From Nemertoderma westbladi (Eukaryota; Animalia; Xenacoelomorpha), in contig JAUCBJ010006899.1 in NCBI GenBank assembly GCA_032718475.1, positions 21,808-85,807 of the forward strand: DNA of 64,000 nucleotides. Direction: 5' to 3'. How positions within the stretch are numbered: the first letter of the stretch is position 1; every line of letters begins with the position of its first letter. Under the pieces are notes generated by a model. That model had not been told where the DNA came from. It saw only the letters and a program-made list of their open reading frames with translations, and did not search any database. This document shows, piece by piece, positions 4,620 to 62,789 of this stretch. Position numbers and translations under genes: made by a program.

Positions 4620-4625
4620 CGACGG

Positions 4626-6941: not shown

Positions 6942-7702
6942 TATGCCTCGCGTATATACATATATATATATCCCAATAAGTGCCGTTACGTAACCAACTA
7001 CACTGTGGGTAAATCAGTTAGATGCCGCCGAAGGACAGACCTCCCGAACCCCCCCCCGCCTTCCAGCAGTTCAGGTTCGACTCTCTAGATCCCGTCTCTT
7101 CCTAACTAACTATCCTCTAACCTATTCCCATGCATAGCGCAAAAACTTTGGAGATAAACTGGCCGTGACCAACTCACTTTTTGATGCCCAAACTACTCCC
7201 ATTACTCCTACTAAACTACAGTAGTTAGAAAGGACCATAGCCACAATACTCGACTATACCAAACCCACAGGTTTGATAATCGAACATCACACATCCTGCA
7301 AACTACTGAGTGGGGTCCGTGCACGCCTCTGGTGCTACTAACCTTTAGCACCCTAGTTGCACTGTTGGCACCAATCTGTGGAAGTTGCTAAACTCAATTT
7401 ACACTCCTACGTAATATAGCCGTCACCATGGTTTCTAAATGCTATTTTCCAGGCTTCACGACTTTCAAATTACTGTTTATCTATAGACGAATTCTAAAAC
7501 GCGTCTATACACAGCGTCTGGAATTGTCTTGGGTTCACTTCTAATTTTTTAAAATTTTAAATTTTCCAAAAAATTTTTGAAAATAAAATTTTGTTTTGAT
7601 ACCCACCAGACAAAACTCAACGCAAATCACCACAACCCCGCTCCTATGCATTTCCGTGTATTTGCATACGAGGAATGCATACGAAGTGAGTTGCCTCTAA
7701 CA

Positions 7703-8759
7703 CTAACTCTGTTTGGAGGCAGGAGACAAATTATAATCTCCCGTCTCGATACGTGTCTCCTCTAATAACACAATATCTTGGACCGGTCGGTCCAAGGTGT
7801 GTAAACCATTAGTTTTACACTTTTTTGGGTGCGGACACTTGCACCTAATTTTCACAGTGACTGTGCGCACTATGTTTTGCACGTCTGGGTGTGTGTGCGA
7901 GATCACTCCTGTCTCCCAATACTTTCTCTTGACAATGGGTTCGGTTATCAACACGTAATCTCCCCTTTGGAGACTCCGAACCGTTTTGTACCACTTTGTT
8001 CTGGTAGATATGGTGGGAAGATAGTATTCCCGCCAATATTCCCAGAATGTGTACGCCACAAACTGTGTTACTTTCCAGCTTTTACGACTATATAGGTCGG
8101 CACTAATGGGTTCTGATGCCGGCACAAGAAATGCTGGACTCTGCATTAGCAAATGATTCGGCGTTAATGCAACACCGTCTGGCAACATAGCTATCGGACT
8201 CGAGTTTAGGGTATGCTCGATTTCAATGAAAGCTGTGACCAGTTCGTCGTCGGTAAGTTGTTTGTTCACAGGCAACGTCTTAGCAATGGCCTGCTTTACA
8301 GAGCGAACTAAACGCTCCCAACTTCCTCCTCTCCAAGGACTCTCTGGAGTATTGAATCTCCATTCTACTCGTTGCGGCAAAAGTGCTGCAGAAATTTCCT
8401 TATTCTGTGCTACTTTATGAGCCGCATTCAACTCGCTATTCCCTCCGACAAAGTTTGTACCCTTGTCAGAGTAGAACGCCTTTACTAGTCCTCTCCTGGC
8501 CATAAATCTCTTCAAGGCCAGGAGCAGAGATTTGGTCGACATGTCTGCCACACGCTCGATATGTATGGCTCTACTAGCCATACATGTCAGTAGCAGACCC
8601 CATCGCTTGTGGGTCAGCCGTCCACTCTGCTTCAATCGGACCAAAACAATCCACCCCTGTGTTCGTAAAGGGTGGGTCATATGCCTGCACTCTCGCTTCC
8701 GGGAGTTCAGCCATCTCCTGTTCCAATACTCTGGTGTTCACCCTCTTGCAAACCAGACA
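7703..8759 (-). pseudogene. Element 1 integrase core, cut off from pol by two frameshifting lesions (~8760 and ~8633)
   Basis: Alternative frame 8759-8634 reads CLVCKRVNTRVLEQEMAELPEARVQAYDPPFTNTGVDCFGPI; ORF 7703-8680 continues KRWGLLLTCMASRAIHIE, YSDKGTNF, GGSWERLV, W..YLP..RTKW. Confidence 0.9.
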
Positions 8760-14652: not shown

Positions 14653-16197
14653 TCACGACCTTTCTTCATACAATGCGCGTCTTCTTTTCTCGATCTCGAG
14701 TTCGCGTTCCTTGCGTCCGCGTTCAAGTTGAAGCTCGCGCTCCTTCTGTTCACGATCGAGTTTCTTGCGCTCGCGTTCGGCTTGGAGTTCGCGTTTCTTC
14801 GCTTCCTGTTCGCGTTCGAGTTGGAGTTCGCGTTTCTTCGCTTCCCGCTCGCATTCAAGTTGGAGTTCGCGTTCTCTCTGTTCGCGTTCGAGTTCCTCGC
14901 GCTCGCGCTCGGCTTGGAGTTCGCGTTCCCTTTGCTCGCGTTCCGCTCGCTCGCGCTTACTTATCTCTTCCAACTCTCGTAACTCTGCGTCAAACTTACG
15001 TGTGCGCTCCCGTTCCCGCTCGGCTTCCTTCCGTGCTTCCTGTGCACGCAAAACTTCCGCCTGCTGTTCGTCTAGTCGGCGTCTTCTCTCCTCCGCCGAG
15101 TTGTGAGAAACAAGGGATCTAGCACATATTACCTTACCTCGCGTGTGACTAACCTGGGAATCGCCGCTGTCTCTAGATGCATCGTCGGGTGGAGTTAACG
15201 TCCTCTGTTGGATGTTCTCCGTCGTCGGTAGCACCTGGCCTGGTACCACCACTCCATTCTGCATCAGCCAGCTAGTAACTTCCCTCTGATAACGGCGCTC
15301 TTCCTTATCTTGGATCTCTTCCCGCTCCACTAAGTCTCTTAACTCTGCGTCACTCACCTGAGTCGCCTGCGCTTGTGATGCCCATAGCAGCCAGTTCTCC
15401 GTCCTAACTCGTCGGAATCGCTCCGATAACTCGCGGTGCTCTAACAAGGCTGCTAAAACCCTGTCGTAAATCCTCGTCGCCACGTCGCTTGACTGAGACT
15501 CCACTGCCTTCTTCGCTAGGACTGCAAGCTCCTCCGTCTGCTTGAATAACGCTGAGTTATATCCTCTTCTAATCTCTGCTAACTCTACCCTCCCGATGTT
15601 CGCTGGGTCAGCTAACATCTTCCTTACCTTGTCCGCCGTCCGAGTTATATGTCCGGCATGCGCGCGAAGTTTCTTCTTTATCGCGATATCGAACTCTCTA
15701 TCACTCACCTGACTTACGCTCGGTGGACTTGAAGGATTATTTCGGGAACTACGGGTACTCCTTACAGCCGTCGGGACCACGGCACTTACCATACCCACAG
15801 GTCTGGAAACCGGGCTCCGGGCTCTCGCTTCTGCTACACTACCCTCCCTATCACTCACCTCTGTCCGGGCTGCTGTGCAGTCCTTCCTTACAGTAGCGGT
15901 AGGGGATCCTAATACTATTACTTGAGGTTGTTGTTCTTCCTCACTAGTCACTGTCTCGTCCTCCTGTTCACTTACGTCAGCGTCGCTCGCTGCGTCGTCA
16001 TAGTCGGCATTGTCATCAACAGTAATGTTTACGCTATCGTCAGTCGGCGGTCCAGCCGCCGTCTCGTAGCTGTCCTCTAGTGCCTCTTTGTCTGAGACAC
16101 TCATAGTCCAAATAATATTTGCCTTCCGGCAAAAATCTCTCGCAAAGTTCGAGATATAATTATAATTTAACCGAAATACGGTCAAATTATTTGTCAA
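14653..16197 (-). CDS. Element 1 N-terminal Gag region (acidic/disordered plus ERE-rich coiled coil), in frame with Gag-Pol across one TGA
   Basis: 514-aa ORF (first ATG ~16103); stop TGA at 14655-14653 immediately followed by in-frame GTG GAA GAA; repetitive R/E tract 14690-14960. Confidence 0.8.
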   Translation of the reverse strand: MTNNLTVFRLNYNYISNFARDFCRKANIIWTMSVSDKEALEDSYETAAGPPTDDSVNITVDDNADYDDAASDADVSEQEDETVTSEEEQQPQVIVLGSPTATVRKDCTAARTEVSDREGSVAEARARSPVSRPVGMVSAVVPTAVRSTRSSRNNPSSPPSVSQVSDREFDIAIKKKLRAHAGHITRTADKVRKMLADPANIGRVELAEIRRGYNSALFKQTEELAVLAKKAVESQSSDVATRIYDRVLAALLEHRELSERFRRVRTENWLLWASQAQATQVSDAELRDLVEREEIQDKEERRYQREVTSWLMQNGVVVPGQVLPTTENIQQRTLTPPDDASRDSGDSQVSHTRGKVICARSLVSHNSAEERRRRLDEQQAEVLRAQEARKEAERERERTRKFDAELRELEEISKRERAEREQRERELQAEREREELEREQRERELQLECEREAKKRELQLEREQEAKKRELQAERERKKLDREQKERELQLERGRKERELEIEKRRRALYEERS

Positions 16198-17400
16198 ATA
16201 ATCAGTTGGTCCAAAATGTCAAAATAAATTCGCAATGCAATATTGCGAATTTAATGGGGTATATAGTTATAGCAAATACTAGCACAATATTTAAACAAAA
16301 TATTATTATATAGCTACTATATAATATTAAATACCGGTATAGCACAAAATAACTCTGAATCTAATACAAAATATTCAAAATAAACTTGCCGCCCGAATAT
16401 TTCTAATTTTATATATAGCTCTAATCAACGTAATTTTAGTTTCAAATATTATATGTATCCACTAGCGCGTGGCTACATCTTCGGGTTGCGACTCTCTCTA
16501 ACTCTCTCTCTAACTTGAGCGATTCAAAACCATGGCCGGCTAAACCTAAATATCCTAACTAATAAATTGAGTTCAGCTTCGCAGTTAAACAACCGATAAT
16601 TTTTTACTGCTTCCACAAACACACCGGCGCCAACAGAACAACTAACCTTGTTTGCTGTGAGATTCCACGTCCGCGTCCAAAGATTCAGGCCCTTCGCTGA
16701 TTGCAAACCGAACCCGCAGACCCACACGAACCCCAAACTCAGAAGTCCCGTCTTGCCATGTATCTCCAGATGGTATAAAATAACTAAGCGGTTACCTAAC
16801 ATACCGTTACAAAACTCTAGAATTTTACAAATAATTTTGACCGAAACTGAATTCTCGCAAACCTAGCTAATAATTTTCAAAAAACTTACTAATTACAGTT
16901 TGCCCTAAGGCCTAAGGAACTGCTGTATTCGCAATTAGCAAAACGCACTACCGTACATCCACTGTATGCAGTACAGTAAGTAAAACAGTACACCAACCTA
17001 ACAGCCTAATGATACTGTGTGTGGTACGGCAAACAAATGTCCTTCTACCGTACGCAGTAACAGCAATCAGCCTAATGTACTACTGTACTAGTGTACGCAG
17101 CCAGTGAATACAGTAATATAAACTAACAGCCTAAAGGAATATACTCAATGTTCTACCGTACGCTAGCCTATAGCCTACAGCAGACGATCACGTGCTCCAA
17201 TTTATTGCCTAATACTATGATACTACTATCAGCCTAAGAATACTCTATCTGCCTTACTGTACGCAGTACAGCAAAGCAATACAGCACGTATCACTGATAC
17301 AAAGTATCAGTGATCTAAACTAACAGTAGTCTAAACTAACAGCCTAAGAATACTCTATTTACTGTACGCTACAGCCTACAGCAAACAAAACACGTATCAC

Positions 17401-19564
17401 TGATAAACAACCGCGACCTCTATACTAACAGCAGAACTGTTGAACAGACTAATACCCGTTAATATCCTTCTGCCAACCTAGTAAGTTCTCGTCTAACCAA
17501 TAAGACACAAAGACTGCTCTACTGTTAAGTAAAGGGGCTCAGGAGCGTGATATTACTAAATTGTAAGGGTTGCTAAATACAAAACCGCTACTTACCGTTA
17601 GATGGCGCTAATCTGCCGTCCGCTAATATATTTACTAATTTTACACAACTCCTGCAAAATCGCTTGTTCCTTTCTCTACCGATTGCTCAATAGAGAGCTA
17701 ACTGTTCGAATCTATGAGCCACGCAGGAATAACCAAAACAATAAACCCGAGTCGGCTCCCTAAGCTTACTTAAGACGAGTGCGAGAGGCCTTGCACTCAG
17801 AGTATTCTTACGCCTAATTTTATCACTATTAAAGCACGCTATTACCTACGTCTTTCTAATCGCGAATACTGGGGTTTCTCTAACGTAATGTGTGAATGCG
17901 AGAATATTTAAATATCAAAATGGTACAGTAATTGTCTCTCGTGGATAGTACCACTCTGGGTCTAAAATTGCCTGCAGCTGGCTTTAGGCCAGCAAATCAC
18001 TAGCGTTTCGTGCGTACCGAATAGTGCGTTCTAGCTGATTGCCCGCTAATGCAAATAACCGCTCAGCGTGAATAGTTTACAGTACACTAATTATTACCTT
18101 AGCTACTCTCCGCTATGCTGCGTACTAATTCTTAATTTTTTACTAATTAATTACAGTCACAAATATTTAACAGCGTACTAATTACTAAGAGTTCCAGAAT
18201 ACGTAATTCTAATTTATCACGCAACAGGTTTCGCTAGTAATAGCCTAAATTGCCGTATTACTTTGACCTAATCAGTAACTAATTGTTGTAACTAAGAAAT
18301 AGAAACCAATCAAAGAGAAAAGAGCGCCTACCTAAACATTCACAATCATAGGCACACTTCAATAACACACCAATCAGCGTTAGAAATCACAGTTTACAAT
18401 TATGCAATTCACTACTCGTACTCCACACTCAACGTTCGAAACGTTATGATACGTGCAGGCCTCTCCCGGGTACATATAGGACTCCTAACTAACCTGATTC
18501 CCGCCCCCCTAATACTAAATAGAGACGAAACCTGGATCATCAGCCCCCTAATTACCGTACCGGCGATTGGTCTGCGTACCACAGCGTTAACTTCCCGACC
18601 GCAACGGTGACCCCACGCCAGCGTTGCTCGCTTTGAATCCTCCGCTCTCCCTTAGTCGCCCAACCCCCCGATGTGCCCACCGCCCGCTGGCGCCTTAGCC
18701 CTCCATTACGCTAATAGCTACCGTAGCGGCGCATGCAAATCACAAAGTCTGACAGTCTCAGAAATCCCTTAGGATTATTGCGCAGAAAAGAATCACATAG
18801 AACCATTAATCAAAGGTAGAAATCATAGTTCAATTGTAATTAGCAGTAATCGAAGGAATTATTGAGAAACACAAGCAAGTAATCGCACTAGCAAATCATT
18901 TCACGAAATTAATCAAATTAGCAAATTGCAGAAAGTACGATATCCTAATACAAAATTAGAGACAGCTCAACAGCAGTGAGAATGTGTCATGTGAGTGAGA
19001 GATTGATGATAGGCTCTACCGGCACACCGCCAATTTATAGGTGATCCGGGTGGGATGATGCAATAGGGTGACTCAATCGCTCTCCTATTGGCTCTCCAGT
19101 CCATGCTAGCATTAGACCAACCTGGAAGCAGTTAATCCAATAAGGAGGCCGGATTGTAGCCCTATTGCTCAAATTATTACCATATATGGTAATGGATCAC
19201 GTCTCTGGCTGCTGAATGGCCAGGACGGCGTCCCTATGCTAGCCCTATCAAACTAATATCAGCAAGCACAAAATCCAGGGTCCGAGTAAACTCGCTACCC
19301 TGGGACTATCTACATATATCCTAATACAAAATTACGTAGGTAGGGCTACATACTATACAAAATGGATGGTTTCAAATATATGGGCGTTTTGATTTCCCTA
19401 CCTAAATACCACTGCGTTATTATGCCTTATCTAAAATATCATGCTGCACAACGGACTAATATTACGTACAGTATAACGGACTAATATTGCATACTGCATA
19501 ACGGACTAATACTGCATACAGTATAACGACTAATAATGTGGATACAGCGCCATATACCGTAACA
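17401..19564 (-). repeat. 5' LTR of element 1
   Basis: On the element strand starts TGTTACGG and ends GTTTATCA; flanked by TSD TCATG. Confidence 0.97.
19034..19091 (-). promoter_or_regulatory. Putative LTR promoter: CCAAT box (19091-19087) and TATAAA (19039-19034)
   Basis: Consensus motifs in element orientation about 50 bp apart; untested. Confidence 0.45.
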
Positions 19565-49991: not shown

Positions 49992-50522
49992 TGTTAGCTT
50001 ATTCAATCCCGCTAACACCCCATAAAGTTATAAGCCGATAAGCAATATTGGGAGCCACGAGATTGGGCAATTAACCAACTCGTGCCATCCCAATAAGAGT
50101 GGGAAGGAAGCACACAATAAAGGGTCAGGGGCCGAACCCCTAACCCAGAGAGTACAGGTGGAGTGAACGGGAACACTCCACGGGGCGCCAACAAGGGTAT
50201 CAACCAATCAGAGGGGGGCAAGGCATCGATTGAGTAGAGCAATAAGGCCACCGTGCAATATAACCAGTAACACAATGTCAGTAATTCAGTTATCTCAGTG
50301 CAGTGTAGGTTAGTTAGTTTAGATAGGGGAGCATGGGACTTTAGTTACCGTATCCGCCTTCCGTATATTATACTACAGTCATCATATCTATATCTTATAT
50401 CTATCAATTATTATACACCGAATATCAGAACTCATTCACTATTTCCGTTTACTCTTTATACACGGCGGGGACGCGTAAACTAAACACCGGATAAATCGGG
50501 ATCCCTCCTGGATCCCGTCACA
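49992..50522 (+). repeat. 5' LTR of element 2 (end at 50522 inferred from ...GTCACA)
   Basis: Matches 63501-64000 up to 50490 with about 4 substitutions and 1 indel; true 3' end cannot be confirmed in this window. Confidence 0.8.
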
Positions 50523-50590
50523 GTAACTAAATCAGCTGCCGCCCTAGATAAACTCAATAATCAACTAGCACCGAAATCTGCAGAAGAGAG

Positions 50591-53500
50591 ATGAGTCAGT
50601 CAGGTGACATGACACCGACGCGGACCCCGGACGAAGACCAAATGATCCATGAGGCCGCAACCAGGCGATACAGACCCACGACACCGCAGCCATCGATAAC
50701 GGGCGAACCGGAAGTTCAAGACGAGGGGAGCCTGGAACAAGAGGTCGAGCCAAGAGGAAGGGAGAGCGAGACAGAGGGAGACGGAGATGAGTCGACACGG
50801 GACGGAGATCGGCGCACCGATGTCGCCGGCCAGCTACAGGCCGAGGGCGACGAGCGGCCCACCGAAACGGCGACGGTGGGGCCGACGGTGCGACGCCGGA
50901 CGCGAAGAGACGGAGGAGACATCGGTACCGATGTCGCCGGCCAGCTACAGGACGAGGGCGACGGACGGCCCACCGGAACGGCGACGGTGGAGCCGCCGGT
51001 ACGACGTCGAACCCGGAGGGACGGAGGAGAGGTCGGCGACGAGGACGTCGGGGTTTCAGAGCGACTTCGACGGGCCTACAACGCGACCCGGAAGCTGATA
51101 AAGGACGCCAAGAAGGAAGGGGCGAAGGTAGACGAGGTGAGACTGAGAAAGCGACTAGGTGAGTCGGATAGACACTTTAATTACCTAATACGTTTTGGGC
51201 AGAGAGAACTAGCCGAGGAGAGAGCAAAAGGGGTTGCCGGCGAACTGTTTGAACTATGGGAGTGTGGGAGTATGGAACCTAGCGTAGCGCCAGTGTACAT
51301 AGGGCCATACTTGGTCGATGCCCAGGGAGCAAAATTAGTGGGTTGGAGGGGACCCGAGGGGGGCGAATCCGAGGTTAACCCCGAGGATTCGGCCTCGTCG
51401 GTCGGAGAAAGTTCCGGGAAGCGGGGAAAAGTTAGTAGGTCGGGAAGGCGGAGGGGGTCCGCTGTAACCGATAAGTCTGCTACATCCTCCGCGAAAGAAA
51501 GAGTGGTGAGAGAGATAGGTGCCGCATACCGTCTCAGCATGGTAGAACAAGGTCAGAGGGAAATGGAGGAACGGTTAGAGGAGGGGAGAGTGCGGTTAGC
51601 GAGGGAAGCGGCATTGATTAGAGAAACCGGAGAGAGGGCCGAAAGGGCTTTGAGAAGCCTTAGGGAGTGTGAGGAAATAGAAGAAATTATTTTATGTATT
51701 TTTGGGGAGCCGGGGGCCGTAGATACATTTATTGATACCCCACTGACAGGGACCGTGCGACAAACCCAAAACTGGTGTGACCGTACGGGCGGGGGGGGCA
51801 ATGTCAATAATGATACAGTAGACGTTGTTAATGTTGATAGTACCGTATGGGACAACTCTAATCAAACCTTTATTACAGGGAATACTTTACCTAGTGGTAG
51901 TAATTTAAATTTAAATCAGAACGTTCCTAATATTAATGTAGAAAATAATTCTAATATTAACGTAGTTACACAAAATAATTCAAATAATTTAAATAATGAT
52001 CCAAGCCCGAATTTACAAAATAATTCAAATGATTTTATTTCGAACGAACAAATTAATTTTATTTCGAACGAACAAATTAATTTTATTTCGAACGAACAGA
52101 TTAATTCCGTTTCCAATATGGGTGCTATTAACGTGAACACGTCGGGCGTGTATAGCCAGACAAACGGGGGCCTGGAAGGCCACGTAGTTGGTAGGCAGGG
52201 GGTGGCTGGGTTGAATAGACCCAGCGAGGGCCTGGTAGGCCACATAGTCAGTAGGCAGGGAGTAGTTGGATTAGATAGACCCAGCGAGGGCCTGGTAGGC
52301 CACACAGTCAGTAGGCAGGGAGTAGTTGGATTAGATAGACCCAGCGAGGGCCTGGTAGGCCACACAGTCAGTAGGCAGGGAGTAGTTGGATTAGATAGAC
52401 CCAGCGAGGGCCTGGTAGGCCACGCAATAGCAGAGAGAGAGGCGGGGGTGAATAGACCCGACCGCGATAGGCTTGATGTGTCGACTGGAGAGGGATATAG
52501 TAGCGGGGTGAGGAGTAGCGAAGTTAGATGTGGCGAATGGGGGGGGGGGGGGGCTACGAGAACCCCACAACAGCGAGTTAGCGGCAAAAAGGGGGGGGGC
52601 AGAGAGTGTCCCACAGCCGTCAGCGGATAATGCGAGGGCCGAAATAGGTAAACCGCAACAACCGGCGACGGAAAGTAATAGGGGGATTGCGAGTATCCCC
52701 AGCGGCGTGCGACCGAGCAGGGAGAGACAGGTTGACGTCGTAAGAGGGCGGACGAAGCGTCGAGCCCGATCAGAAGAGGGAAGAAGAAGAGTGGGGTTTA
52801 ACCGGGAGGTCGGCGAGAGATCTCACGAGCGGGAATACTCCACTGAAAGGAGAAGAAGAGAAGACAGTAGTAGAGGTATCGCCGCGAACGATAGAAGAGC
52901 GAGGACGGATAGCGAGCCGCCGGTAGTTGAGATGAGAACGGAGAGTCAGTGGGGTCGGACTCCGGGAGATTGCCGTCGCCTCGGAGAGATGCGACCCGGC
53001 GAGGCGCACTACGCGCCGAGAGAGGGGTACGCGATGTACCGGTACAAAGATGAGAACAGTAGAGAGGGGGGTCGAAGAGAAACTTTCCGACGGGATATAC
53101 CTATGGATCGAGAATACGGTAGCCGCGGGGAGGATTATTCGAGAAGAATAAACTTCAATCCCGAACAACACATGCAGACTGTAGGACATACTGTAGGCCT
53201 TACTGCACATACCGTAGGCCATACTGAGAGAGGCAATGTAGGCGATGGGATAGCGTGGACAACGGGATTGAACCCGGAAGTCGCGGAATACATACCGGCG
53301 GGTAGGCCAGAAGCTGATAGGCCTATACCGGTATCAGCACAGCAGTATGACTACAGCATGCAGGGACATAACATATACCCAGGGGAGGGGGGAATTATTG
53401 CGGATAGGTGTATGGGCCCCAACATATTAACATCAACCCCAGTACCAAACATACCGGTGGGGGGGGGACAGGGTGACATTCCCCCATCACAATATCAACA

Positions 53501-53624
53501 ATATACCCCGATAGTAGCAAGAACAACGAGACCCTTGGACGAAAACAGGTCGTGTGACACAGCATATATGGAGGGGGCCGCTACCCCCGATGACATACCC
53601 AAGCCAGAGAAAGTCAAGAAATAG
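50591..53624 (+). CDS. Element 2 N-terminal Gag region, low-complexity, split across frames (50591-52630 and 52530-53624)
   Basis: Frame change at G15 run 52539-52553; internal 24-bp (NFISNEQI x3) and 60-bp (GLDRPSEGLVGHTVSRQGVV ~x4) repeats. Confidence 0.65.
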
Positions 53625-56600
53625 GACAGACGGAACGCACCAGACAGGTGAAACTATACAGCACCCGTCGAATCCATTGGAAGCGCAGGCGATGGGGATG
53701 GCCACATTGATCGATGCGTTGAAAACGAGGATCGAGCTACCACCCGTGGAACCATTCAAATTCGATGGGAGTAGGCCGGAAGAATATCTACAGTTTCGGC
53801 GCATGTATAGTAACGAAATACTAACAAAAAACTTGACGCAGGCGGAGTGCCTAAAGTATCTACAAGTGTACACGGGAGGCCCAGCCTACGACATCGTGAG
53901 GCAATATCAGGGAATAGAGGGCGGCTTCACGACAGCATGGCGGGCATTGGATAGGGAATACGGGCACCCGGCCAAGATCATCAGGCAGACGCTGAGGGGC
54001 ATAACGTCGGGTGGCCTACAGGATAATCCTGTTAGCATTAAGACGTTCGCTAACAAAGTCGAAAAGGCGCTAATCGTGCTGAAGACGCTAGACGCGCCGT
54101 ACGAGCTCAATGCGTCCAACAACATCACCACGATAGCGCAGGCACTACCAAACTGGCTGCGCAACAAGTGGAGGAAAATTGCCTTCTCCACTCGAGATAA
54201 GAAGGGTGCGGAACCGGGTTTAGAAGAAATGTCAAACTTCTTAAACTACGAGGCTGAACTAATAACTGACCCAGTCTATAGCGAAGACAGCCTGGGAAAG
54301 GGACCGAAGACAGACTACCATAGACCGAAACCAGAGCACAACACATCGAACGCATTACCGAGACTCAGGCAATCATTGCCATATGCAGCGACGCAGGGGA
54401 CTGCAAGTCCACAGCTAGCCGAGGATAAGACAACATCATGGAACGGACAGGGAAACAATAACAGCACAAATAAACATAACCCCAGTACGTCCAGTAGGCA
54501 AAACCCAAACAATAAGAATAGTAGGGACTTCGGTACGAACGCAACCGCGATACGCAATGCACTGTATAAAGAAGGCTACGACCCAAAGAGCAAATGTCAG
54601 CTACACGCAAATGCGCTTCATCAAACTATGAACTGCAGGTACTGGCAGGCGCTACCCAGGCAGGATCAGATAGATTATGCGTTCAGCAATAAAATCTGCT
54701 CGCGATGTGTAATGAGTGGACATAGAGCAAGGGAGTGCAAGGAGAAGCCAATGAAATTTGGTCAAAGGAGAGGCCAAACGATGGCGACGAGCACAGTAGG
54801 GGCGAAGAAGAGGGGAACGGTGCTACTTGGAGTAGTACCAGTGCGAGTGATCGGGGAAGGCAATCGATCAGTAACAACACTAATGCTGGTTGATAGTGGA
54901 GCTGCCTTCACATTAGTCGAGGAATGGGTGGCCGTGGAGATAGGATTGAGAACGAGGCCGAGCAGGATGGCGGTAACAACCATCTCTAGCAAAGATGAGG
55001 TCCTGGAGATGAGAACAGGACGGTGCGCAATTGCAGCAGTGGCACCAGGATGCGACTATGGGGCAACCATCGACCCCATTCAAGTGATAGAGTCAATTAA
55101 TATCAATGCCAGGCGGCCAACCAACATCGAGGTTGAGCAGTACAAATTCCTGGACAACATTGACTTCTCAATCCCAGACGTGGACGTTAGGAAGGTATCC
55201 ATCATAGTAGGTATGGACTGCCCAACAGCCCACGAAAGAATGCAAACGGTCTTCGGCGAAGACAAGCAGAGTGACCCGGTGGCCATATTAACACCATTCG
55301 GGTGGACGCTGAGTGGTCCAATTAAGAGCAAGATACCATTTGGGATGTCGGAGACATCAGGATGCATGTTCGCGGGAACAATGCAGGAAATGGGTGACGA
55401 GGGAGCAGAAGAGCAGCTTAAAAGACTGCTCAGACAAGATTTTGAGGGACTGAAACAGACAGGGGTCGGGACCTCAGTAGAAGACAAGCAGGCTCTACAA
55501 AGCGTGGAGGAATCAATGAGATGCGATGAGGGACGGTATACTATAGGAATGGTATGGAAACTACCGAAGATACCGCTGCCCGACAATAGGGGGATGGTGC
55601 TCACGAGACTCCGCAAACTGAAACAAGCACTAAAACGGAGCCCCGAGAAGAATGAGTACATCCACAGAACAATTAAGAAGTACGTCGAGAAAGGATGGGC
55701 CGTGGAGTTACCGGTCGACGAGCCGAACACGGATAGGACATACTACCTGCCACTACACGTGGCTTTAGATCCAAAGAAAGGTAAACTAAGGATGGTAGTC
55801 GACGCATCGGCAAAGACCGACGGGAAATGCTTAAACGACTACCTGTTAGAAGGCCCAAACATATACAATTCGGGCATAGAGGTGTTACTTAGATTTCGAA
55901 ATGGGAAACACGCCTTCACGTGTGACATAGAAGGCATGTTCAACCAAGTCCGTGTAACGGAAGAAGATAGCGACAGTCAACGCTTCTTATGGTATAACGG
56001 CGAGGAAGAACCGCCGATAATACCAGCATATAAGATGGTAGTACAGAACATGGGGGCCAAGTCGTCTTCATTTACGACGACTATGGCAGTGAGAGACACA
56101 GTAAAGGGGAAGGAAGATAGATACAGCAGTAGGGCCGTCGATATGATTCGACGCGGCTTCTACGTAGACGACGGAATGGAGTCTGGAAATACGGTTAAGG
56201 AGATACTGGACACAGGGCGCGAGGTTCGCGACATCCTAAAAGGATCCGGCTTTAACCTGACCAAATTCCAATCCAGTTCAGAAGAATTTATTAAGGCGAT
56301 AGAGGACAGGAGACCAGAATCGACCATGGACAATCCCACAACAGCCAAAGGGCAGGACATGGCGATTAAGAGAACAGAATCTCAACAGAAGGCATTGGGA
56401 ATCGTGTGGGATAGAGAGACAGACGAACTGAAGTATCAGCTGAGCCAGGAGGGCGCAGACATCCACACGAAGAGGGGCTATGTATCGTATATAGCAAGGA
56501 TATACGATCCCCTAGGCCTAGCATCCCCATTATTAGTCACGGGGAAACAGATACTCAAGAGAGTATACAAATTGAAAGATGAGTGGGACGTAGAGGTACC

Positions 56601-58800
56601 AGAGGAAATCAAGAAACAGTGGAGCAAGTGGACAGGAGACTTGGAGAAGATGGGAACATACAACATGCCACGGGTGTATTTCCCGGATGGGAACATGACG
56701 AATCTGGACCTACACATGTTCTCCGACGCGTCGTTGGAAGCGTACGGAGCGGCACTCTACTTAGTACAACGAGAAGGGGCTCATAAGCCAAGGCTAGCCT
56801 TTAGCAAAGCAAAGTCAACGCCGCCAGATTCAGCATCTGTTCCCAAGTTAGAATTGACAGCTGCGAGACTAGGAGTAAGAGCCACAGCCTACCTAGTGGA
56901 TACTATTCCCAACATAGTGGAGACACACTACTGGACGGACTCCATGGTAGTGCTTGGTTGGCTACACAACGAAAAGACGAGATATCCGATATTCGTCGCG
57001 AATAGAGTGGACGAAATAAGGGCGAGCACAGAACTGGAAAGGTGGCACTACTGCCCAACAGACGAGAACCCAGCGGACTTGCTGTCGAGGGGCGTGGAAC
57101 GCCACACTTTCCTGAAGAAGGAAGTATTGTGGCAACATGGGCCACAATTTCTGAGCGATAGGGAGGCCTGGCCGCCGATGAGGAAGGTGGACCCGGGCTC
57201 GGAAGTAGTATCAGAAGGAGAAGAGGGAGATTCAGAGGGAGAAGAGATATACTCCCAGATGGTGAGGGAGATTAGGGACGTGCAACCAGGAAGGGAACTG
57301 TGCGATAACCCAACGGATAAACTCCTCAGCTACAGTTCTAGTTGGTATAAGACCAAGAAACTAGTGGCGTATTGGAGAGCCTTCGGGAATTTCCTTGCGG
57401 GAGTCGGCAAGGACAAGAAAATCAGGACAACCATAGATCTGGAGGGAGCGGCCAAGGCAGTGATCCGCTATGAACAACGGAAGAACTACGGCGACGAGGT
57501 GGAACGCGTCGGTAACCAACAGCACCTCCGACGGGACAGCGAGCTGATTACGCTGTCGCCACAACTCAATGACGACGGGATTCTAGTAATGAATTCTAGG
57601 GTGGGATACAACAATAGCATAGTCGTACCACCGAAACCCATCATCATTCCTACAGGATCGCCAATAGTCCACCAGATTATATGGGACTCCCACAAATCGA
57701 TATTGCACGGGGGCACCAACCGAACCCTCACAGAGATAAGGAGGACCTATTGGGTCAAACAATTAAGGAAGAAGGTTAAAGCGGTAGTGGGGCAGTGCCA
57801 GACCTGCCGACGGGCGAAGAAGGAGCGAGCCATACAGGAGATGGCGCCACTACCGGCGAGTAGGGTAAGACAGCACGACCCGCCATTTACGCATTGCGGT
57901 GTGAACATGTTCGGGCCGATAAAGATCAAGGTGATGCGACACACGGAGAAACGCTACGGTATTATCTTCGTATGCAACAATACGCGGGCGGTAGGGATAG
58001 AACTCGCCCAAGATGCAACCGCATCAGCGTTCATTAACGCCTTAGAAAGGTTCAGGGACCGCAAAGGTGGGACGATCGCAGTGATATACAGCGACAACGG
58101 CACCAACTTTGTGGGCGCAGAGAGTGAAATGGCAGAGGCCTTAGACATCTTGGAAGGGGAAGAAGTCAGGGCAGCCATGAGACGACGAGAGGTAAAGTGG
58201 GAGAGAAGGACGCCGTATGCACCACATACACTAGGATGCGTCGAGAGACTGGTGGGCAGTTCAAAGCGTCTAATGACAAAGCTAATGAACACCCACATGG
58301 TCACTGAGGACGTCTTACGGACAGTACTTGCGAAGTGCGAGGGGATCATTAATAGCAGACCGCTATATCCGGAGAATGACGACCCTGAGTCACTAGACGT
58401 GTTAACGCCTAGCCATTTCCTAATGGAAAGACCAGCGACCATCGATATGCGGGGTGTAGACCCAGATGACATACACTCCCGCCAAAGTTGGAAAATCGCA
58501 AAGGCAATAAGCGCTGAGTATTGGAGGAGGTGGGTCGAGGAATACCTACCCACGCTCCATAAGCGAAGCAAATGGAGGAAACCGAACAGGGAGTTAAGAG
58601 CAGGAGATCTTGTAATCGTTACGGATGATACTATCATCAACAACCAGTGGCGGTTGGCGAGAGTTGTAGACACCTACTCCGACGAGGACGGAAGAGTCCG
58701 ATCGGTAGAAGTGCGGATAGGTGGAAAGATAGGTGCGAAGGACAGAAAAACCTACAAGAGAGCAGTAGGGAAATGCTGTCTTCTAGAAGGGGCACCTTAG
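53554..58800 (+). CDS. Element 2 Gag-Pol (Gag core, Zn knuckles, protease, RT, RNase H, integrase with D->N at the first catalytic residue)
   Basis: FKFDGSRPEEY; CSRCVMSGHRAREC; LVDSGA; YYLPLH, CDIEGMFNQV, FYVDDG; FSDAS, WTDS, NPADLLSRG; H..HGG..CQTC, GVNMFGP, YSDNGTNF, VERLV. Confidence 0.95.
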   Translation: MTQHIWRGPLPPMTYPSQRKSRNRTDGTHQTGETIQHPSNPLEAQAMGMATLIDALKTRIELPPVEPFKFDGSRPEEYLQFRRMYSNEILTKNLTQAECLKYLQVYTGGPAYDIVRQYQGIEGGFTTAWRALDREYGHPAKIIRQTLRGITSGGLQDNPVSIKTFANKVEKALIVLKTLDAPYELNASNNITTIAQALPNWLRNKWRKIAFSTRDKKGAEPGLEEMSNFLNYEAELITDPVYSEDSLGKGPKTDYHRPKPEHNTSNALPRLRQSLPYAATQGTASPQLAEDKTTSWNGQGNNNSTNKHNPSTSSRQNPNNKNSRDFGTNATAIRNALYKEGYDPKSKCQLHANALHQTMNCRYWQALPRQDQIDYAFSNKICSRCVMSGHRARECKEKPMKFGQRRGQTMATSTVGAKKRGTVLLGVVPVRVIGEGNRSVTTLMLVDSGAAFTLVEEWVAVEIGLRTRPSRMAVTTISSKDEVLEMRTGRCAIAAVAPGCDYGATIDPIQVIESININARRPTNIEVEQYKFLDNIDFSIPDVDVRKVSIIVGMDCPTAHERMQTVFGEDKQSDPVAILTPFGWTLSGPIKSKIPFGMSETSGCMFAGTMQEMGDEGAEEQLKRLLRQDFEGLKQTGVGTSVEDKQALQSVEESMRCDEGRYTIGMVWKLPKIPLPDNRGMVLTRLRKLKQALKRSPEKNEYIHRTIKKYVEKGWAVELPVDEPNTDRTYYLPLHVALDPKKGKLRMVVDASAKTDGKCLNDYLLEGPNIYNSGIEVLLRFRNGKHAFTCDIEGMFNQVRVTEEDSDSQRFLWYNGEEEPPIIPAYKMVVQNMGAKSSSFTTTMAVRDTVKGKEDRYSSRAVDMIRRGFYVDDGMESGNTVKEILDTGREVRDILKGSGFNLTKFQSSSEEFIKAIEDRRPESTMDNPTTAKGQDMAIKRTESQQKALGIVWDRETDELKYQLSQEGADIHTKRGYVSYIARIYDPLGLASPLLVTGKQILKRVYKLKDEWDVEVPEEIKKQWSKWTGDLEKMGTYNMPRVYFPDGNMTNLDLHMFSDASLEAYGAALYLVQREGAHKPRLAFSKAKSTPPDSASVPKLELTAARLGVRATAYLVDTIPNIVETHYWTDSMVVLGWLHNEKTRYPIFVANRVDEIRASTELERWHYCPTDENPADLLSRGVERHTFLKKEVLWQHGPQFLSDREAWPPMRKVDPGSEVVSEGEEGDSEGEEIYSQMVREIRDVQPGRELCDNPTDKLLSYSSSWYKTKKLVAYWRAFGNFLAGVGKDKKIRTTIDLEGAAKAVIRYEQRKNYGDEVERVGNQQHLRRDSELITLSPQLNDDGILVMNSRVGYNNSIVVPPKPIIIPTGSPIVHQIIWDSHKSILHGGTNRTLTEIRRTYWVKQLRKKVKAVVGQCQTCRRAKKERAIQEMAPLPASRVRQHDPPFTHCGVNMFGPIKIKVMRHTEKRYGIIFVCNNTRAVGIELAQDATASAFINALERFRDRKGGTIAVIYSDNGTNFVGAESEMAEALDILEGEEVRAAMRRREVKWERRTPYAPHTLGCVERLVGSSKRLMTKLMNTHMVTEDVLRTVLAKCEGIINSRPLYPENDDPESLDVLTPSHFLMERPATIDMRGVDPDDIHSRQSWKIAKAISAEYWRRWVEEYLPTLHKRSKWRKPNRELRAGDLVIVTDDTIINNQWRLARVVDTYSDEDGRVRSVEVRIGGKIGAKDRKTYKRAVGKCCLLEGAP

Positions 58801-58929: not shown

Positions 58930-59750
58930 GTATGCAGTTAGTAGGCAGAAGGTACGTAGTACCTAATTAGTTAGTAGGTACGTAGTACCTAGAGTTAGTT
59001 AGTTAGTTAGTAGGTACGTAGTACCTAGAGTTAGTTAGAGGGTTAGTAGGTACGTAGTACCTAGTTAGAGAAGTTAGTTAGTAGGTACGTAATACCTAGA
59101 GTTAGTTAGAGGGTTAGTAGGTACGCAGTACCTAGTTAGAGAAGTTAGTTAGTAGGTACGTAGTACCTAGAGTTAGTTAGTTAGTTAGAGGGTACGTAGT
59201 ACCGTTAGTTAGAGTTAGAGTTAGAGGGTACGTAGTACCGTTAGTTAGAGTTAGAGTTAGAGGGTACGTAGTACCGTTAGTTAGAGTTAGAGTTAGAGGG
59301 TACGTAGTACCGTTAGTTAGAGTTAGAGTTGGAGGGTACGTAGTACCGTTAGTTAGAGTTAGAGTTAGAGGGTACGTAGTACCGTTAGTTAGAGTTAGAG
59401 TTAGAGGGTACGTAGTACCGTTAGCTAGAGTTAGAGTTAGAGGGTACGTAGTACCGTTAGTTAGAGTTAGAGTTGGAGGGTACGTGGTACCGTTAGTTAG
59501 AGTTAGAGTTAGAGGGTACGTAGTACCGGTAGTTAGAGTTAGAGTTAGAGGGTACGTGGTACCGTTAGTTAGAGTTAGAGTTAGAGGGTACGTAGTACCG
59601 TTAGTTAGAGTTAGAGTTAGAGGGTACGTAGTACCGCTAGTTAGAGTTAGAGTTAGAGGGTACGTAGTACCGTTAATTAGAGAGTCAGAGGGTACGTAGT
59701 ACCATTAGTTAGAGAAGAGTTAGAGTTAGAGGGTACGTGGTACCATTAGA
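58930..59750 (+). repeat. Minisatellite between pol and ORF3; core 36-bp unit GGTACGTAGTACCGTTAGTTAGAGTTAGAGTTAGAG (~14 regular copies plus degenerate flanks)
   Basis: Directly visible tandem array. Confidence 0.95.
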
Positions 59751-60239
59751 GAGAGAGAGAGTAAGAGGTAGAAGGGTATATAAGATATAGATATTAGTTA
59801 GCAGTTAATAGAGAGAGGGGGGCATATGAGCACAGCTGGATAAATCGTGTGGCCACACGACGAATACTGCTGTACTGCATGGGCCCACAGAGTAGGCCAG
59901 AATGTGGATTAGGGAATAGAATAATCCATAGGCAGTAGTAAGTAGTAGGACAGTAGAATCAAATTAAAAATAGATAAATAAATAGAATAGGGCTGAAAGT
60001 TGTAAAATGGTGGCAACATAAGGGAAGTTATTCTAGAACATAATAAAAGTAACGGACAGAAATTGTAAATTACGCTCATTTACTAGCTTCGAAATTAATT
60101 AGGAATAATTTAGGTTAAAAGGCGCAGTTAAGTAGAAGTAGGCCATTATCGAACTGTACAGAACATCCTAGATACATCACTCATCTGTATTGCGCCTTGG
60201 TAAGGCACCACCTTGCAGGTGAGCGAGTGAACGTTCGGA

Positions 60240-62789
60240 ATGGCGAGTAAGTTGATCAGAAAGAGAAAGGCGGAGTCAGGAGGAAAGGAGATACTGGTGG
60301 ATTTCACCGAGAGACATCCGGAAGAGAAGACGAGAGGATACTACGAGAGGTTGGAAAGGGGTCACGCGGCACGAGCGCTGCAGGATCACTTCCGGGAGGC
60401 GCACGAACAGCGGCTGGTCGGGACCTACGGGACCCCCTCGCTAGACAACGCGATCTTCCAACACTTCCACTACGTAGTGAAAGGGGACGAGGCGAAATTC
60501 GGGATTCCGAAATACCCGAGGGAATCACCGAGGAAGGACTGGAAAAGATTCATAGAGTCCGTCAACAGAGGAGGATATATGATCCTAGATGACGAGGGAA
60601 CCGTGGAAGACGAAGCGGGTTCGAGACGAGGAACGGCAGGGTCGGCCAGGACCATACTCCTACATTTGGCTGCGCCAAATGGGGACATCTTCTTATTCGA
60701 TCTAGGAACGTATGGGAAGAAGGACGGGCCGAAATTAGACCGATTACCGAAAGCGGTACAAGTCTTAGTAAGAGAGAAGTCGACGACGAAAGTGGGATCG
60801 GCGATTCGCGAGGACGCGGAGAGGATCATCGGTCCGGACGCCACCAACCTCCTGGATATGCAGAAAGTCTTTATGGCTATGACGGCACCGGATGGATTGG
60901 GGGTAGTCGGAAACACAGGCCAATGCGGGGCGGTGGCAATGGGCCAATTATTGGGGCTCGTATGCCACAAACCGATGGACTGGGGAAAGTTTAGGGAAGA
61001 ATACGGGGCAGAACTAGCGAACTCGCTAAAGTGGGGAGCGAGACCAGGAAAGCAGGAGGTATATCAATTCCGCAGAGGAGCGATAAAGGTATATCAGAAG
61101 CGATATATCCTGCAGGAAGACTGGATCATGATAAGTTTGCTTAACTTATTTATGACCGTGGTTATCGAGAGGGAACCAGGGGCATTTCTGTTATCGGGAT
61201 CACCCCTAAGCTACAGGAGAGCCTTTAAAGTGGCCTTCGACGGTCTGGTAGACCACCCGGGGCTGAAGGGCGAGTCGGTATACTATAACAGCCGGCATCT
61301 GGTAGACGGGGAGACAGATACACCGTATCAGAGATGGGAGCAGCTAGAAGCGGATAGACGAGAAGCAAAGCGACTGGAAGAAGTCGCCAGACGGGAGAGG
61401 ATAGAAGCAGAGGAGAGGGAAGAGGAGGCCAGGACACAGAGTTACGGCTTCGAGGAACAGGCAGGCCTAGATGAACTTCATTGCACTTCATCAGGGAGTT
61501 CGGGGGAGTCTCTAGGGCGAGAATTGGGATGGACGGTGGGATCACCGAAACAGTCGACGTCAGGGTTGCAAACGATGCCCATACCAGCGGGCGCCGAGGG
61601 CGACCAACTGCCAAGGAAGTTAAGGGAGCTAGAGGGATGGAGAGCTACGGGCGAGAGCCAAGGCGGGAAGGGACATAGTGGATCCATCGGGATACCGGGG
61701 TTGGAAACACTACCAGAAGAGGAGGACGACGGCGACGAGTTCGGAGAGATGCCGCCCATCGAGAGGATAGGCCACTCGGACACGGACTGGGTTGGCGGAA
61801 GGGTGGTGACGGCCAGTGGGGCGAGGGCCTTCTGGAACAGATCCGGCAAGCGGACCTGGGTGCACGAGGAGCCGGCGATGGATTTCGCGGGGAGCACCAT
61901 CAGGTTGGGCGAACAACCGGGGACGGCACCACGGATAGTATTCGGGGAGACGATGCCCGAGAGGGGCGGAGAGATCGATGTAGATAGAGAGGCCAACGTA
62001 GAGAAGTTCGCCTACCAGCGACTCCACAGACCGCGGAGATCGCTTGGGACGAAGGACGAGGTGGGACGGGAGACATTGGTACTCGGCTGCGACTATTGTG
62101 GGAGACAGACCCACCAAGAAAAGAATTGCCTTTACCGGTTCCAAAAGGGAACTTTTTGTCTCTACTGCCGAGAACAAAGCCACAGGATGGGGGCGTGCCC
62201 ATGGTTGCATAATCGATGTACAAAGTGCCACTTTCGGGGACACTACGGACGCGAGTGCGACTGGATGAACGACGAGGAGAAATTCACAAGGTTCGAGGAG
62301 TGGGCCGACGTCGGGGCTATGACGCGCCAGCGCATGAAGGCCCAGGAGTTTAAGTGGGGTTTCTTCCTTATCAATCAGGAGACTCACATGGAAATCATAA
62401 AGCGGAGGCTACCGTTTACCTACCAAGAGGTAGCAACGGCGGCGTCGTACGCTGGAGTGATGAACACGCAAAGGTATCTGGACAGGTGGACGCCAGACAA
62501 CCGAAGGGAGTTTAGGGATTTCTTGGCGGAGCACGTACCAAAGGCAATGAAAATGATCCTATGGGACGCCACCAGAGGGAGACAACCGGGCCACTCTGAG
62601 GGGCCACCGGCGAAGCGATATCGGGCACTAATAACACCAGCGCCCAAGGAGCCAACGACCGGGATCAGCAGGGAGGTGGCGGCGAAGGTCCGAAAACAGA
62701 AGGCGGATAATGCCAGAGGAACGGTGATAACCAAGAAACGACCCAGGGAAGAGGACGCCAGGGGGAACTACCCCCGGAGGAACAGATAG
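60240..62789 (+). CDS. Element 2 accessory ORF3: DEDDy-like 3'-5' exonuclease + acidic linker + triple CCHC knuckle + basic tail
   Basis: Intact 849 aa; ExoI ILDDEG, LLHLAAPNGDIFLFDL, LPKAVQVLV..KVGSAIREDA (ExoII), LLDMQ, QKRYILQED (ExoIII); CDYCGRQTHQEKNC, CLYCREQSHRMGAC, CTKCHFRGHYGREC. Confidence 0.85.
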   Translation: MASKLIRKRKAESGGKEILVDFTERHPEEKTRGYYERLERGHAARALQDHFREAHEQRLVGTYGTPSLDNAIFQHFHYVVKGDEAKFGIPKYPRESPRKDWKRFIESVNRGGYMILDDEGTVEDEAGSRRGTAGSARTILLHLAAPNGDIFLFDLGTYGKKDGPKLDRLPKAVQVLVREKSTTKVGSAIREDAERIIGPDATNLLDMQKVFMAMTAPDGLGVVGNTGQCGAVAMGQLLGLVCHKPMDWGKFREEYGAELANSLKWGARPGKQEVYQFRRGAIKVYQKRYILQEDWIMISLLNLFMTVVIEREPGAFLLSGSPLSYRRAFKVAFDGLVDHPGLKGESVYYNSRHLVDGETDTPYQRWEQLEADRREAKRLEEVARRERIEAEEREEEARTQSYGFEEQAGLDELHCTSSGSSGESLGRELGWTVGSPKQSTSGLQTMPIPAGAEGDQLPRKLRELEGWRATGESQGGKGHSGSIGIPGLETLPEEEDDGDEFGEMPPIERIGHSDTDWVGGRVVTASGARAFWNRSGKRTWVHEEPAMDFAGSTIRLGEQPGTAPRIVFGETMPERGGEIDVDREANVEKFAYQRLHRPRRSLGTKDEVGRETLVLGCDYCGRQTHQEKNCLYRFQKGTFCLYCREQSHRMGACPWLHNRCTKCHFRGHYGRECDWMNDEEKFTRFEEWADVGAMTRQRMKAQEFKWGFFLINQETHMEIIKRRLPFTYQEVATAASYAGVMNTQRYLDRWTPDNRREFRDFLAEHVPKAMKMILWDATRGRQPGHSEGPPAKRYRALITPAPKEPTTGISREVAAKVRKQKADNARGTVITKKRPREEDARGNYPRRNR

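Follow-up and report, generated by a model that had tools for sequence, protein, structure and literature searches.

Two diverged BEL/Pao retrotransposons of Nemertoderma westbladi carry a third gene with a predicted DEDDy-type exonuclease domain and three CCHC knuckles

The window, a 64,000-nucleotide stretch of Nemertoderma westbladi contig JAUCBJ010006899.1, contains two BEL/Pao retrotransposons in opposite orientations. Element A (581..19564, minus strand) is a complete provirus of 18,984 bp with LTRs of 2,164 bp each (581-2744 and 17401-19564) that have four mismatches, and is flanked by a 5-bp target-site duplication. Element B lies on the plus strand at the end of the window and is at least 14,009 bp long; both LTR starts are present, as is a polypurine tract (63492-63500) followed by the 3′ LTR from 63501, which is cut by the window end at 64000. 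The matched part of its 5′ LTR (49992..50490) starts with TGTTA and has a 99% match to 63501-64000, and the true 3′ end, slightly past 50490, cannot be placed exactly, as the 3′ LTR leaves the window. Both elements encode a Pao-type Pol in the order protease (PR), reverse transcriptase (RT), RNase H (RH), integrase (IN), with Pfam matches to Peptidase_A17 (E 3e-40 and 4e-38), DUF1759 and DUF5641, and in element B also to integrase and protease families. The gag-pol of element B (50561..58800, plus strand) occupies three overlapping frames, and the gag-pol frames are broken in both copies. Both elements are young and both families are highly repeated, and their RT-RNase H regions are 35% identical.

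The Gag-PR-RT-RH-IN order, the Pao-type Pfam families, the LTRs and the polypurine tract are shared with the Belpaoviridae (ICTV, PMC8742986), which are described as 4.2-10 kb in size with LTRs of 0.2-1.2 kb and an 18-nt primer site corresponding to the 3′ end of tRNA-Arg or tRNA-Gly (PMC8742986). Elements A and B depart from this profile in their length (14-19 kb), the 2.16-kb LTR of element A, a third gene that is not env, and the absence of a visible tRNA-Arg/Gly primer site; the size of element A and its LTRs is beyond the descriptive range of the family, which does not bar membership. A Pol tree of 65 rows, built by a quick method only and after 17 of 80 metagenome loci were dropped for short matches, unites A with B (SH-aLRT 97), but each sits on a long branch and the grouping therefore does not establish a single origin.

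In each element an open reading frame (ORF3) is located between integrase and the 3′ LTR, the position 3′ of pol given in the original prediction. Element B ORF3 (60240..62789, plus strand) is intact and encodes 849 residues. Upstream of it is a 36-bp tandem array (58930..59790, plus strand) rich in GTTAGTTAG, then TATATAAG at 59777, which is a candidate internal promoter for ORF3; the same motif is also present in the LTRs of both elements and once upstream of element A ORF3. Element A ORF3 (3234..6941, minus strand) is ~460 residues longer at its N-terminus and is cut between nuclease and knuckles by an in-frame stop at 4626-4628. At this codon 99.9% (run X1) and 100% (run X3) of the contig depth is unlike the element A copy, and since other copies do not share the stop it is private to this copy, which also rules out a programmed readthrough. 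No transmembrane anchor is present in ORF3, the highest 19-residue hydropathy being 1.44 in B and 1.34 and 0.55 in the two parts of A, with the 1.44 and 1.34 peaks falling on the predicted ExoIII helix; an env fusion glycoprotein is thus ruled out.

A DEDDy-type 3′-5′ exonuclease domain is predicted at residues 96-320 of element B ORF3 (60525..61199, plus strand) and at 4767..5558 (minus strand) in element A. All of the motifs first noticed (LDDEG/YDNEG, LPK.V...KVGS....D, K......F/Y.E.YG and VY-x13-Y-x3-E) are found in the ORF3 translations, and the two proteins are homologous as proposed, with the exonuclease regions giving a local alignment score of 65 that was reached by none of 1,500 shuffles. 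They are only ~23% identical, next to 35% for the Pols, in keeping with an old module. The ExoI D-x-E and ExoII Asp are in register (D117/E119/D192 in B and D485/E487/D583 in A), followed by an insertion before ExoIII. The ExoIII motif is Y-x3-E in both proteins (Y289 and E293 in B, Y689 and E693 in A) rather than Y-x3-D, with Asp at the next position in B. The catalytic set is therefore D-E-D-E plus Tyr (DEDE-y) and not DEDD, so that the proposed family match holds for the predicted domain while the active site is a variant.

Assignment of this domain draws on several weak but concordant tests. When each domain was queried separately, 24 of the 30 ESM Atlas hits belonged in both cases to the PF01612 3′-5′ exonuclease set, and the top cluster, which is unnamed, was identical; the scores of 0.93 (B) and 0.90 (A) fall in a range (0.9 and above) that, according to the tool note, 4-10% of shuffled proteins also reach. 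Among 2,590 ORFs, the two ORF3s came first and fourth against a profile built from 70 bacterial DEDDy domains, albeit with weak E-values (0.83 and 3.1), and this profile itself placed DDE at ExoI and D192 at ExoII; only four of seven profile-protein rankings were favourable, and neither ORF3 was in the top six for the sub-profiles of RNase D, NrnC and PolA. With hhalign the two proteins scored 33 and 30, values that no column shuffle attained in 40 trials each (maxima 17 and 19). D, E, D and Y form the only invariant columns of a 52-sequence alignment, and all four were matched by 4/400 and 10/400 shuffled queries. Counting all conserved columns after MAFFT was not discriminating, as 16/150 (B) and 33/150 (A) shuffles did as well, and the element A ExoIII register slipped in this test. 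AlphaFold2 gave a model with pLDDT 74.7, highest around the motifs, on the DEDDy-guided 52-sequence alignment and a poor one (pLDDT 31.5) on a two-sequence alignment lacking DEDDy sequences; the only good model was thus built on a DEDDy alignment, and it and its fold matches are partly circular and not independent evidence. Pfam has no family for the full ORF3s at E<=1 or for either nuclease domain at E<=10, with only sub-threshold matches to the knuckles, and PDB searches by sequence gave only chance matches. Taken together, these predictions make it very probable that the N-terminal domain has a DEDDy fold, and it is probably an active nuclease, in which Glu would serve as the last ligand.

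Each ORF3 also has three C-x2-C-x4-H-x4-C knuckles, at residues 617-673 in B (62088..62258, plus strand) and at 4101..4274 (minus strand) in A, and the triple knuckle joined to an exonuclease-like domain is as first described. The A and B knuckles align with a score of 85, reached by none of 1,000 shuffles. They are not a recent copy of the element's own Gag knuckle, as scores against the element A Gag fall within those of shuffles (58 and 118 of 1,000). In element B they follow a Glu/Gly/Arg-rich linker (61272..62039) that is not alignable with element A, and precede a post-knuckle region (62259..62564) with weak similarity between the two families. The shared motif reported for this last region is seen in both translations, but the similarity of the region alone is marginal (score 41, equalled by 42/3,000 shuffles in local and 218/3,000 in global alignment).

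The ORF3 variants listed for each family are mostly synonymous, with 13 of 15 in B and 32 of 39 in A relative to an expected fraction of 0.33 (p 3e-5 and 8e-10). With this excess the gene looks selected, as originally proposed, and a decaying passenger gene is ruled out; ORF3 is an accessory gene conserved in both BEL/Pao families.

Relatives of ORF3 were sought widely. A search of 5.8 billion proteins yielded no homolog of full-length element B ORF3, nor any for the knuckle alignment among longer proteins, and a two-sequence nuclease profile had no matches in 1.84 billion representatives. Viral contigs and plasmids contained no ORF3 relative, nor did metagenome contigs queried with the nuclease alignment. 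The same was true of 80 metagenome BEL loci (tblastn best E 0.006, to the knuckles only), 58 of which reach the end of integrase, seven of these continuing for at least 2 kb past it; the only long downstream ORF, in locus L030, is the Gag of another element. In the seven metagenome BEL loci with both LTRs, the gap between integrase and LTR is 48-283 nt. Because the nuclease with its triple knuckle and DEDE form is too divergent for Pfam and sequence searches, such genes have probably been missed in annotations. No DEDDy ORF3 was found reported for BEL/Pao in the literature searched, and the prior impression that the exonuclease-knuckle fusion is new to BEL/Pao stands within that scope.

DEDDy ORF3s in LTR elements are already published, as initially stated, for the Juno and Vesta LTR retrotransposons of bdelloids and for Athena/Terminons (PMC5408684), none of which is BEL/Pao. 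As here, these ORFs are 3′-5′ exonuclease-like, follow pol where env would otherwise be, lack transmembrane segments, and have a catalytic set that is altered yet apparently intact, with a function that is predicted only (PMC5408684). They differ in having a DEED rather than a D-E-D-E motif, in that no CCHC array is described in that part of the paper, and in size, the ORF3s here being 849 to ~1,235 residues. A nuclease-plus-CCHC arrangement is known from Trypanosoma brucei RNase D (TbRND; PDB 7C42), in which a DEDDy exonuclease is likewise followed by a CCHC array (PMC7797062, in the text available), and which ties as the best structural match to the alignment-guided model (Z 12.1, rmsd 3.6 Å, 188 aligned residues, 18% identity). 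TbRND is a cellular enzyme of mitochondria, and its four knuckles are separated from the nuclease by a linker of 28 residues, whereas ORF3 is encoded by a retrotransposon and has three knuckles behind a long charged linker; the likeness is likely convergent. The WRN-exo, EXD2, Nibbler (MUT-7), RICE1 and Egalitarian group shares the KVG..i..D form of ExoII and the motif order with ORF3, and its domains fill the Foldseek list, a ranking obtained from the guided model; ORF3 is only ~10-20% identical to any of them and cannot be placed in a particular sub-family. RICE1, which is active, likewise carries Glu at the last DEDD position, but its site is otherwise non-canonical and metal-independent, making it a loose precedent for the Glu ligand (PMC5451212). 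The two elements thus extend DEDDy exonuclease capture by retroelements to another superfamily, BEL/Pao.

We tentatively favour the interpretation that ORF3 is a knuckle-guided 3′-5′ RNase acting against host small-RNA silencing. The three CCHC knuckles would bind single-stranded RNA, presumably the substrate, and keep it in place as the nuclease trims its 3′ end, with knuckle-assisted loading perhaps as in TbRND, in which the CCHC array makes the enzyme bind and cleave RNA better (PMC7797062). Expression apart from Gag-Pol via the candidate internal promoter would allow the protein to act in trans. Its target might be the small RNAs that mediate silencing, the precursors from which they are made, or tails added to the RNA of the element, and trimming these would likely blunt silencing. 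According to the available text of PMC5408684, DEDDy ORFs are common to unrelated retroelements with different priming modes, from which we infer a general RNA role over a primer-specific one; in the same text Rodriguez et al. describe no clear link of DEDDy ORF3 to copy number or small-RNA cover. The counter-silencing role is offered as a possibility; if true, it would mean that an animal transposon encodes its own enzyme against host defence, which is rare. The rotifer ORF3s are, in that portion of PMC5408684, never assayed, and the intact, apparently selected 849-residue ORF3 together with a TbRND analogue of known mechanism makes directly testable what retrotransposon exonucleases cut.

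The main alternative, though unlikely, is that the nuclease matures the element's own primer by trimming annealed LTR RNA to the duplex, leaving a 3′-OH for reverse transcriptase. No tRNA primer site is seen in either element (the element B LTR end being uncertain), and neither ARAGORN nor Rfam found an element-encoded tRNA or primer RNA. A search of element A for a tRNA-Arg or tRNA-Gly site found no TGG in the 150 nt after the LTR; the sequence at the primer-site position (17390..17400, minus strand) instead pairs with LTR positions 1109-1119 (window 18446-18456) in an 11-nt duplex including two G-U pairs, whose energy is reached by 3/200 shuffles (the exact 9-mer by 74/5,000). In element B an LTR-internal 9-mer (50340..50348, plus strand), a candidate self-primer site, is complementary to 50523-50531, just after a candidate LTR end, a match seen in 127/5,000 shuffles for any of seven candidate ends. 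Both pairing sites lie 40-50 nt downstream of a AGGTTAGTTAG motif common to A and B, and exact complements are at most 7 nt long in all seven complete control BEL elements without ORF3, short of the 9 nt seen here. However, the pairing test is post hoc, the element B LTR end is not fixed, and TGG is also missing after the LTR in six of the seven controls, which have no room for ORF3, so that a tRNA primer site is not a universal feature. In Tf1, self-primer cleavage is performed by RNase H. Known self-primers are freed by cleavage of the 5′ LTR transcript (PMC6317226, as far as its available text goes). The fuller proposal that these families replicate without tRNA by nuclease-assisted self-priming, the exonuclease-knuckle protein trimming annealed LTR-derived RNA, is improbable; if true, it would be a new way of starting reverse transcription, a priming route not found in the literature searched and with an element-encoded primer-maturation enzyme.

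Somewhat less likely than primer maturation is that ORF3 is a weak or dead DEDDy-fold RNA adaptor, similar to Egalitarian or EXD1, that carries element RNA to germ-line or assembly sites. The ExoIII change from Asp to Glu in both families and the insertion before ExoIII are consistent with this, both Egalitarian and EXD1 turn up as fold matches (of the guided model, and so not independent), and inactive DEDD derivatives that still bind RNA are mentioned in PMC5408684. Against it, the Tyr and every one of the four acidic positions are retained in proteins that are only 23% identical, and the listed variant at codon E293 of element B is synonymous. Dead DEDD-family members usually lose catalytic residues.

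That the N-terminal domain is not DEDDy at all, the motifs resembling the family by chance in a conserved protein that folds differently, is quite improbable. Every HMM E-value is insignificant, the Atlas scores arise with some shuffled proteins, and the unguided fold failed, but two proteins of such low identity independently returned the same family, hhalign twice exceeded all 40 shuffles, and the residues common to A and B are those the DEDDy family needs. Of the three functions first proposed (primer maturation, silencing evasion and proofreading), proofreading has the least support, and a proofreading or cDNA-end-processing DNA exonuclease for an unusually long genome is the least probable reading overall: element A (19.0 kb) and element B (at least 14 kb) do exceed the 4.2-10 kb of the family (PMC8742986), and WRN-type and PolA domains, which act on DNA, appear among the fold matches of the guided model, but the nuclease is a separate ORF with RNA-type knuckles, no such nuclease is described for the larger LTR elements Ogre and Burro (16-30 kb) in the available part of PMC6431247, and the extra length is largely ORF3 itself, the LTR and low-complexity Gag.

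The window contains two LTR elements, and the Pol proteins of both match Pfam families of Pao type (Peptidase_A17, DUF1759 and DUF5641). Spanning 18,984 bp on the minus strand (581-19564), element A is a complete copy, with LTRs of 2,164 bp that differ by 4 mismatches and a 5-bp target-site duplication. Element B (plus strand) starts at 49992, and its 3′ LTR, preceded by a polypurine tract, runs from 63501 past the window end; the LTR pair is 99% identical over the 500 bp of 3′ LTR inside the window. Both copies are young, and their gag-pol frames are broken. The elements are oversized, as the ICTV range for Belpaoviridae is 4.2-10 kb with LTRs of 0.2-1.2 kb (PMC8742986). The original prediction of unrelated-looking LTRs and diverged Pol proteins holds, in that blastn finds no alignment between the A and B LTRs and the RT-RNase H regions are 35% identical (164/468). 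In a quick phylogeny of 65 RT-RNase H rows, A and B group together (97 SH-aLRT); both branches are long, and the grouping may be an artefact.

Between the integrase and the 3′ LTR each element carries a third gene (ORF3), predicted to encode a 3′-5′ exonuclease of the DEDDy family together with CCHC knuckles. ORF3 of B (60240-62789, plus strand; 849 aa) lies downstream of a 36-bp tandem array, and ORF3 of A (6941-3234, minus strand) has a single in-frame stop at 4626-4628. Contigs from two public sequencing runs (X1 and X3) differ from the window copy at this codon in 99.9% (X1) and 100% (X3) of the depth; the stop is therefore private to the window copy, and in the family the nuclease and knuckles share one frame. 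As judged by sequence comparison the two ORF3s are homologous: the nuclease regions are 22-23% identical, with a score equalled in 0 of 1,500 shuffles, and the score of the knuckle regions is equalled in 0 of 1,000. Three C-x2-C-x4-H-x4-C knuckles are found in both translations, as predicted. The post-knuckle motif also said to be shared has some similarity, but this is marginal because 42 of 3,000 shuffles equal its score. No transmembrane segment was found in either protein. ORF3 of A has ~460 additional N-terminal residues (5560-6941, minus strand) with a Cys/His cluster (CGEC...CPAH), which are missing from element B and have no Pfam match. At 62252-62812 contigs of both runs include a variant skipping 559 bases and dropping the post-knuckle C-terminus of ORF3 B, and this variant is a deleted subfamily.

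The N-terminal domain of ORF3 very probably has a DEDDy fold. No Pfam family was found for the nuclease domains, a search of PDB sequences gave no true match, and no ORF3 homologue was found among 5.8 billion proteins, nor a homologue of the nuclease among 1.84 billion representative proteins. The indirect tests agree with one another. In the ESM Atlas, 24 of 30 matches to the B domain belong to the PF01612 set (0.93; family on 34% of cluster members), 24 of 30 matches to the A domain do so too (0.90; 50% of cluster members), and the top cluster, an unnamed fungal one, is identical for both; the shared-feature counts (167 and 153) are both below the tool's same-family mark of 170. A profile built from 70 bacterial DEDDy domains and tested against 2,590 ORFs ranks the ORF3s 1st and 4th (E 0.83 and 3.1), and without further guidance it aligns ORF3 B from ExoI to ExoII. 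A mostly WRN-like sub-profile ranks them 2nd and 4th, and three other DEDDy sub-profiles place neither among their top 6. With hhalign, the A+B pair scores 33 and 30 against two profiles, each equalled by 0 of 40 column shuffles, at probabilities of only 46% and 21%. D, E, D and Y are the only invariant columns of a 52-sequence alignment (D117, E119, D192 and Y289 in B; D485, E487, D583 and Y689 in A); shuffled queries match all four in 4/400 and 10/400 cases, and a tally over all conserved columns does not beat shuffles (16/150, 33/150).

AlphaFold2 gives no confident model from the A+B pair alignment alone (pLDDT 31.5) and reaches a pLDDT of 74.7 from the 52-sequence alignment. Three structures are tied as matches of the alignment-guided model, namely diDNase (Z 12.2, rmsd 3.6, 166 aligned), the Trypanosoma brucei RNase D TbRND (Z 12.1, rmsd 3.6, 188 aligned) and RNase D (Z 11.9, rmsd 3.7, 170 aligned), and its Foldseek matches include RICE, EXD2, Egalitarian, TbRND and Nibbler; these matches indicate compatibility only, since the fold came in with the alignment.

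Of the DEDD-type exonuclease originally proposed, D, E, D and Y stand in register, but both families have Glu as the ExoIII acid (YILQE, YLVLE). The variant listed at this residue of B ORF3 (codon E293) is synonymous. With the two ORF3s no more than 23% identical, conservation of the Tyr and of all four acidic residues speaks for an active nuclease. RICE1 resembles ORF3 in having Glu at the ExoIII position and is active with this residue (Glu187) last in its catalytic set, although the rest of its site is non-canonical and works without metal (PMC5451212). The catalytic set of the rotifer ORF3s is DEED (PMC5408684).

The A and B families are highly repeated and ORF3 moves along with them. Element B received 75,977 (X1) and 28,801 (X3) contigs, covering ORF3 along its whole length as they do pol, and 1,061 bp of A ORF3 received 1,243 (X1) and 521 (X3), these placements not being copy numbers. 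Among the best-supported variants (40 of 2,549 for B; 40 of 45 for A, excluding the stop site), 13 of 15 in B ORF3 (p 3e-5) and 32 of 39 in A ORF3 (p 8e-10) are synonymous, where random transitions would give a fraction of 0.33, as are 6 of 10 in B pol; because they are the best-supported variants and a single diverged subfamily contributes many of them, the counts are not independent and do not amount to dN/dS. ORF3 is real and appears to be under selection.

No relative of ORF3 was found in 80 metagenome BEL loci, of which only 7 extended at least 2 kb past the integrase; both LTRs were present in 7. In the open literature (Repbase, GyDB and most subscription papers are outside this scope) we found DEDDy ORF3s for bdelloid elements only; these were published in PMC5408684 and cited again in PMC6431247, PMC5718144 and PMC6338049, the last of which describes the DnaQ-like domain as well known among the accessory domains that LTR elements carry. 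The word 'exonuclease' is missing from the main text of a BEL/Pao survey (PMC3118150) and from that of PMC13524379. In line with the original prediction, a DEDDy ORF3 and its fusion to knuckles are apparently undescribed for BEL/Pao in the open literature; the general theme is already published, and the function of ORF3 is a predicted one.

In TbRND an RNase D domain is combined with four CCHC fingers, which bind U-tails and increase cleavage (PMC7797062); ORF3 likewise joins a predicted nuclease and CCHC motifs, with three knuckles rather than four. If ORF3 works as TbRND does, its knuckles would load single-stranded RNA for the nuclease to trim at the 3′ end. DEDDy ORFs have been acquired by unrelated retroelements, Penelope-like ones included (PMC5408684), which favours a need general to retroelements, and this would most plausibly be to withstand silencing by small RNAs or the tailing of RNA. 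In the same paper, the rotifer DEDDy ORF3 has no clear relation to copy number. We tentatively propose that ORF3 trims the 3′ ends of knuckle-loaded RNA and so may counter small-RNA silencing or tailing.

ORF3 would be expressed from an internal promoter and its protein would act in trans. This is suggested by the motif GTTAGTTAG, which is present in the A and B LTRs. The B array holds 19 copies of it before a TATA-like box, and a single copy precedes A ORF3. Sites of the form (AG)GTTAGTTAG are at 1675, 18495 and 7110 (minus strand) in element A and at 50307, 63816 and 58994-59600 (plus strand) in element B; this is possibly a host promoter element turned to internal promoter use. It is common to two LTRs that otherwise do not align.

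Alternatively, the ORF3 nuclease could mature the element's primer; three primer types are known (PMC6317226). No tRNA primer site was seen in A or B, and there is no TGG in the 150 nt beyond the element A LTR end. The 11 nt after the A LTR (17390-17400, minus strand) pair with LTR positions 1109-1119 (18446-18456), the duplex energy being equalled in 3/200 shuffles and the exact 9-mer in 74/5,000. A 9-mer past a candidate LTR end in B (50523-50531, plus strand) pairs with LTR positions 349-357 (50340-50348), a match seen in 127/5,000 shuffles with 7 candidate LTR ends considered. Both LTR pairing sites are 40-50 nt downstream of AGGTTAGTTAG. Such self-complementarity beside the primer site favours primer maturation in that no exact LTR complement >7 nt is present in any of seven complete metagenome BEL elements lacking ORF3. 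However, six of these controls (L010, L028, L045, L062, L074 and L081) also have no TGG directly after the 5′ LTR. Self-priming of A and B is therefore plausible, it is far less plausible that this depends on ORF3, and primer maturation by the nuclease is unlikely. In element A the LTR-end/primer-site sequence recurs ~100 nt further downstream.

LINE-type fragments with an endonuclease match, and a DDE_Tnp_4 transposase, are present at 23892-26546 (plus), 26950-27756 (plus) and 49226-49969 (minus); the last, LINE-like, adjoins element B. A 3.16-kb tandem duplication at 40678-47004 (99.6% identity, with an inverted repeat inside) could be genuine or could have arisen in assembly. Among repeats at 35758-36834 (plus) there is a 358-aa, apparently intronless open frame with a Tetraspanin match (E 1e-12).
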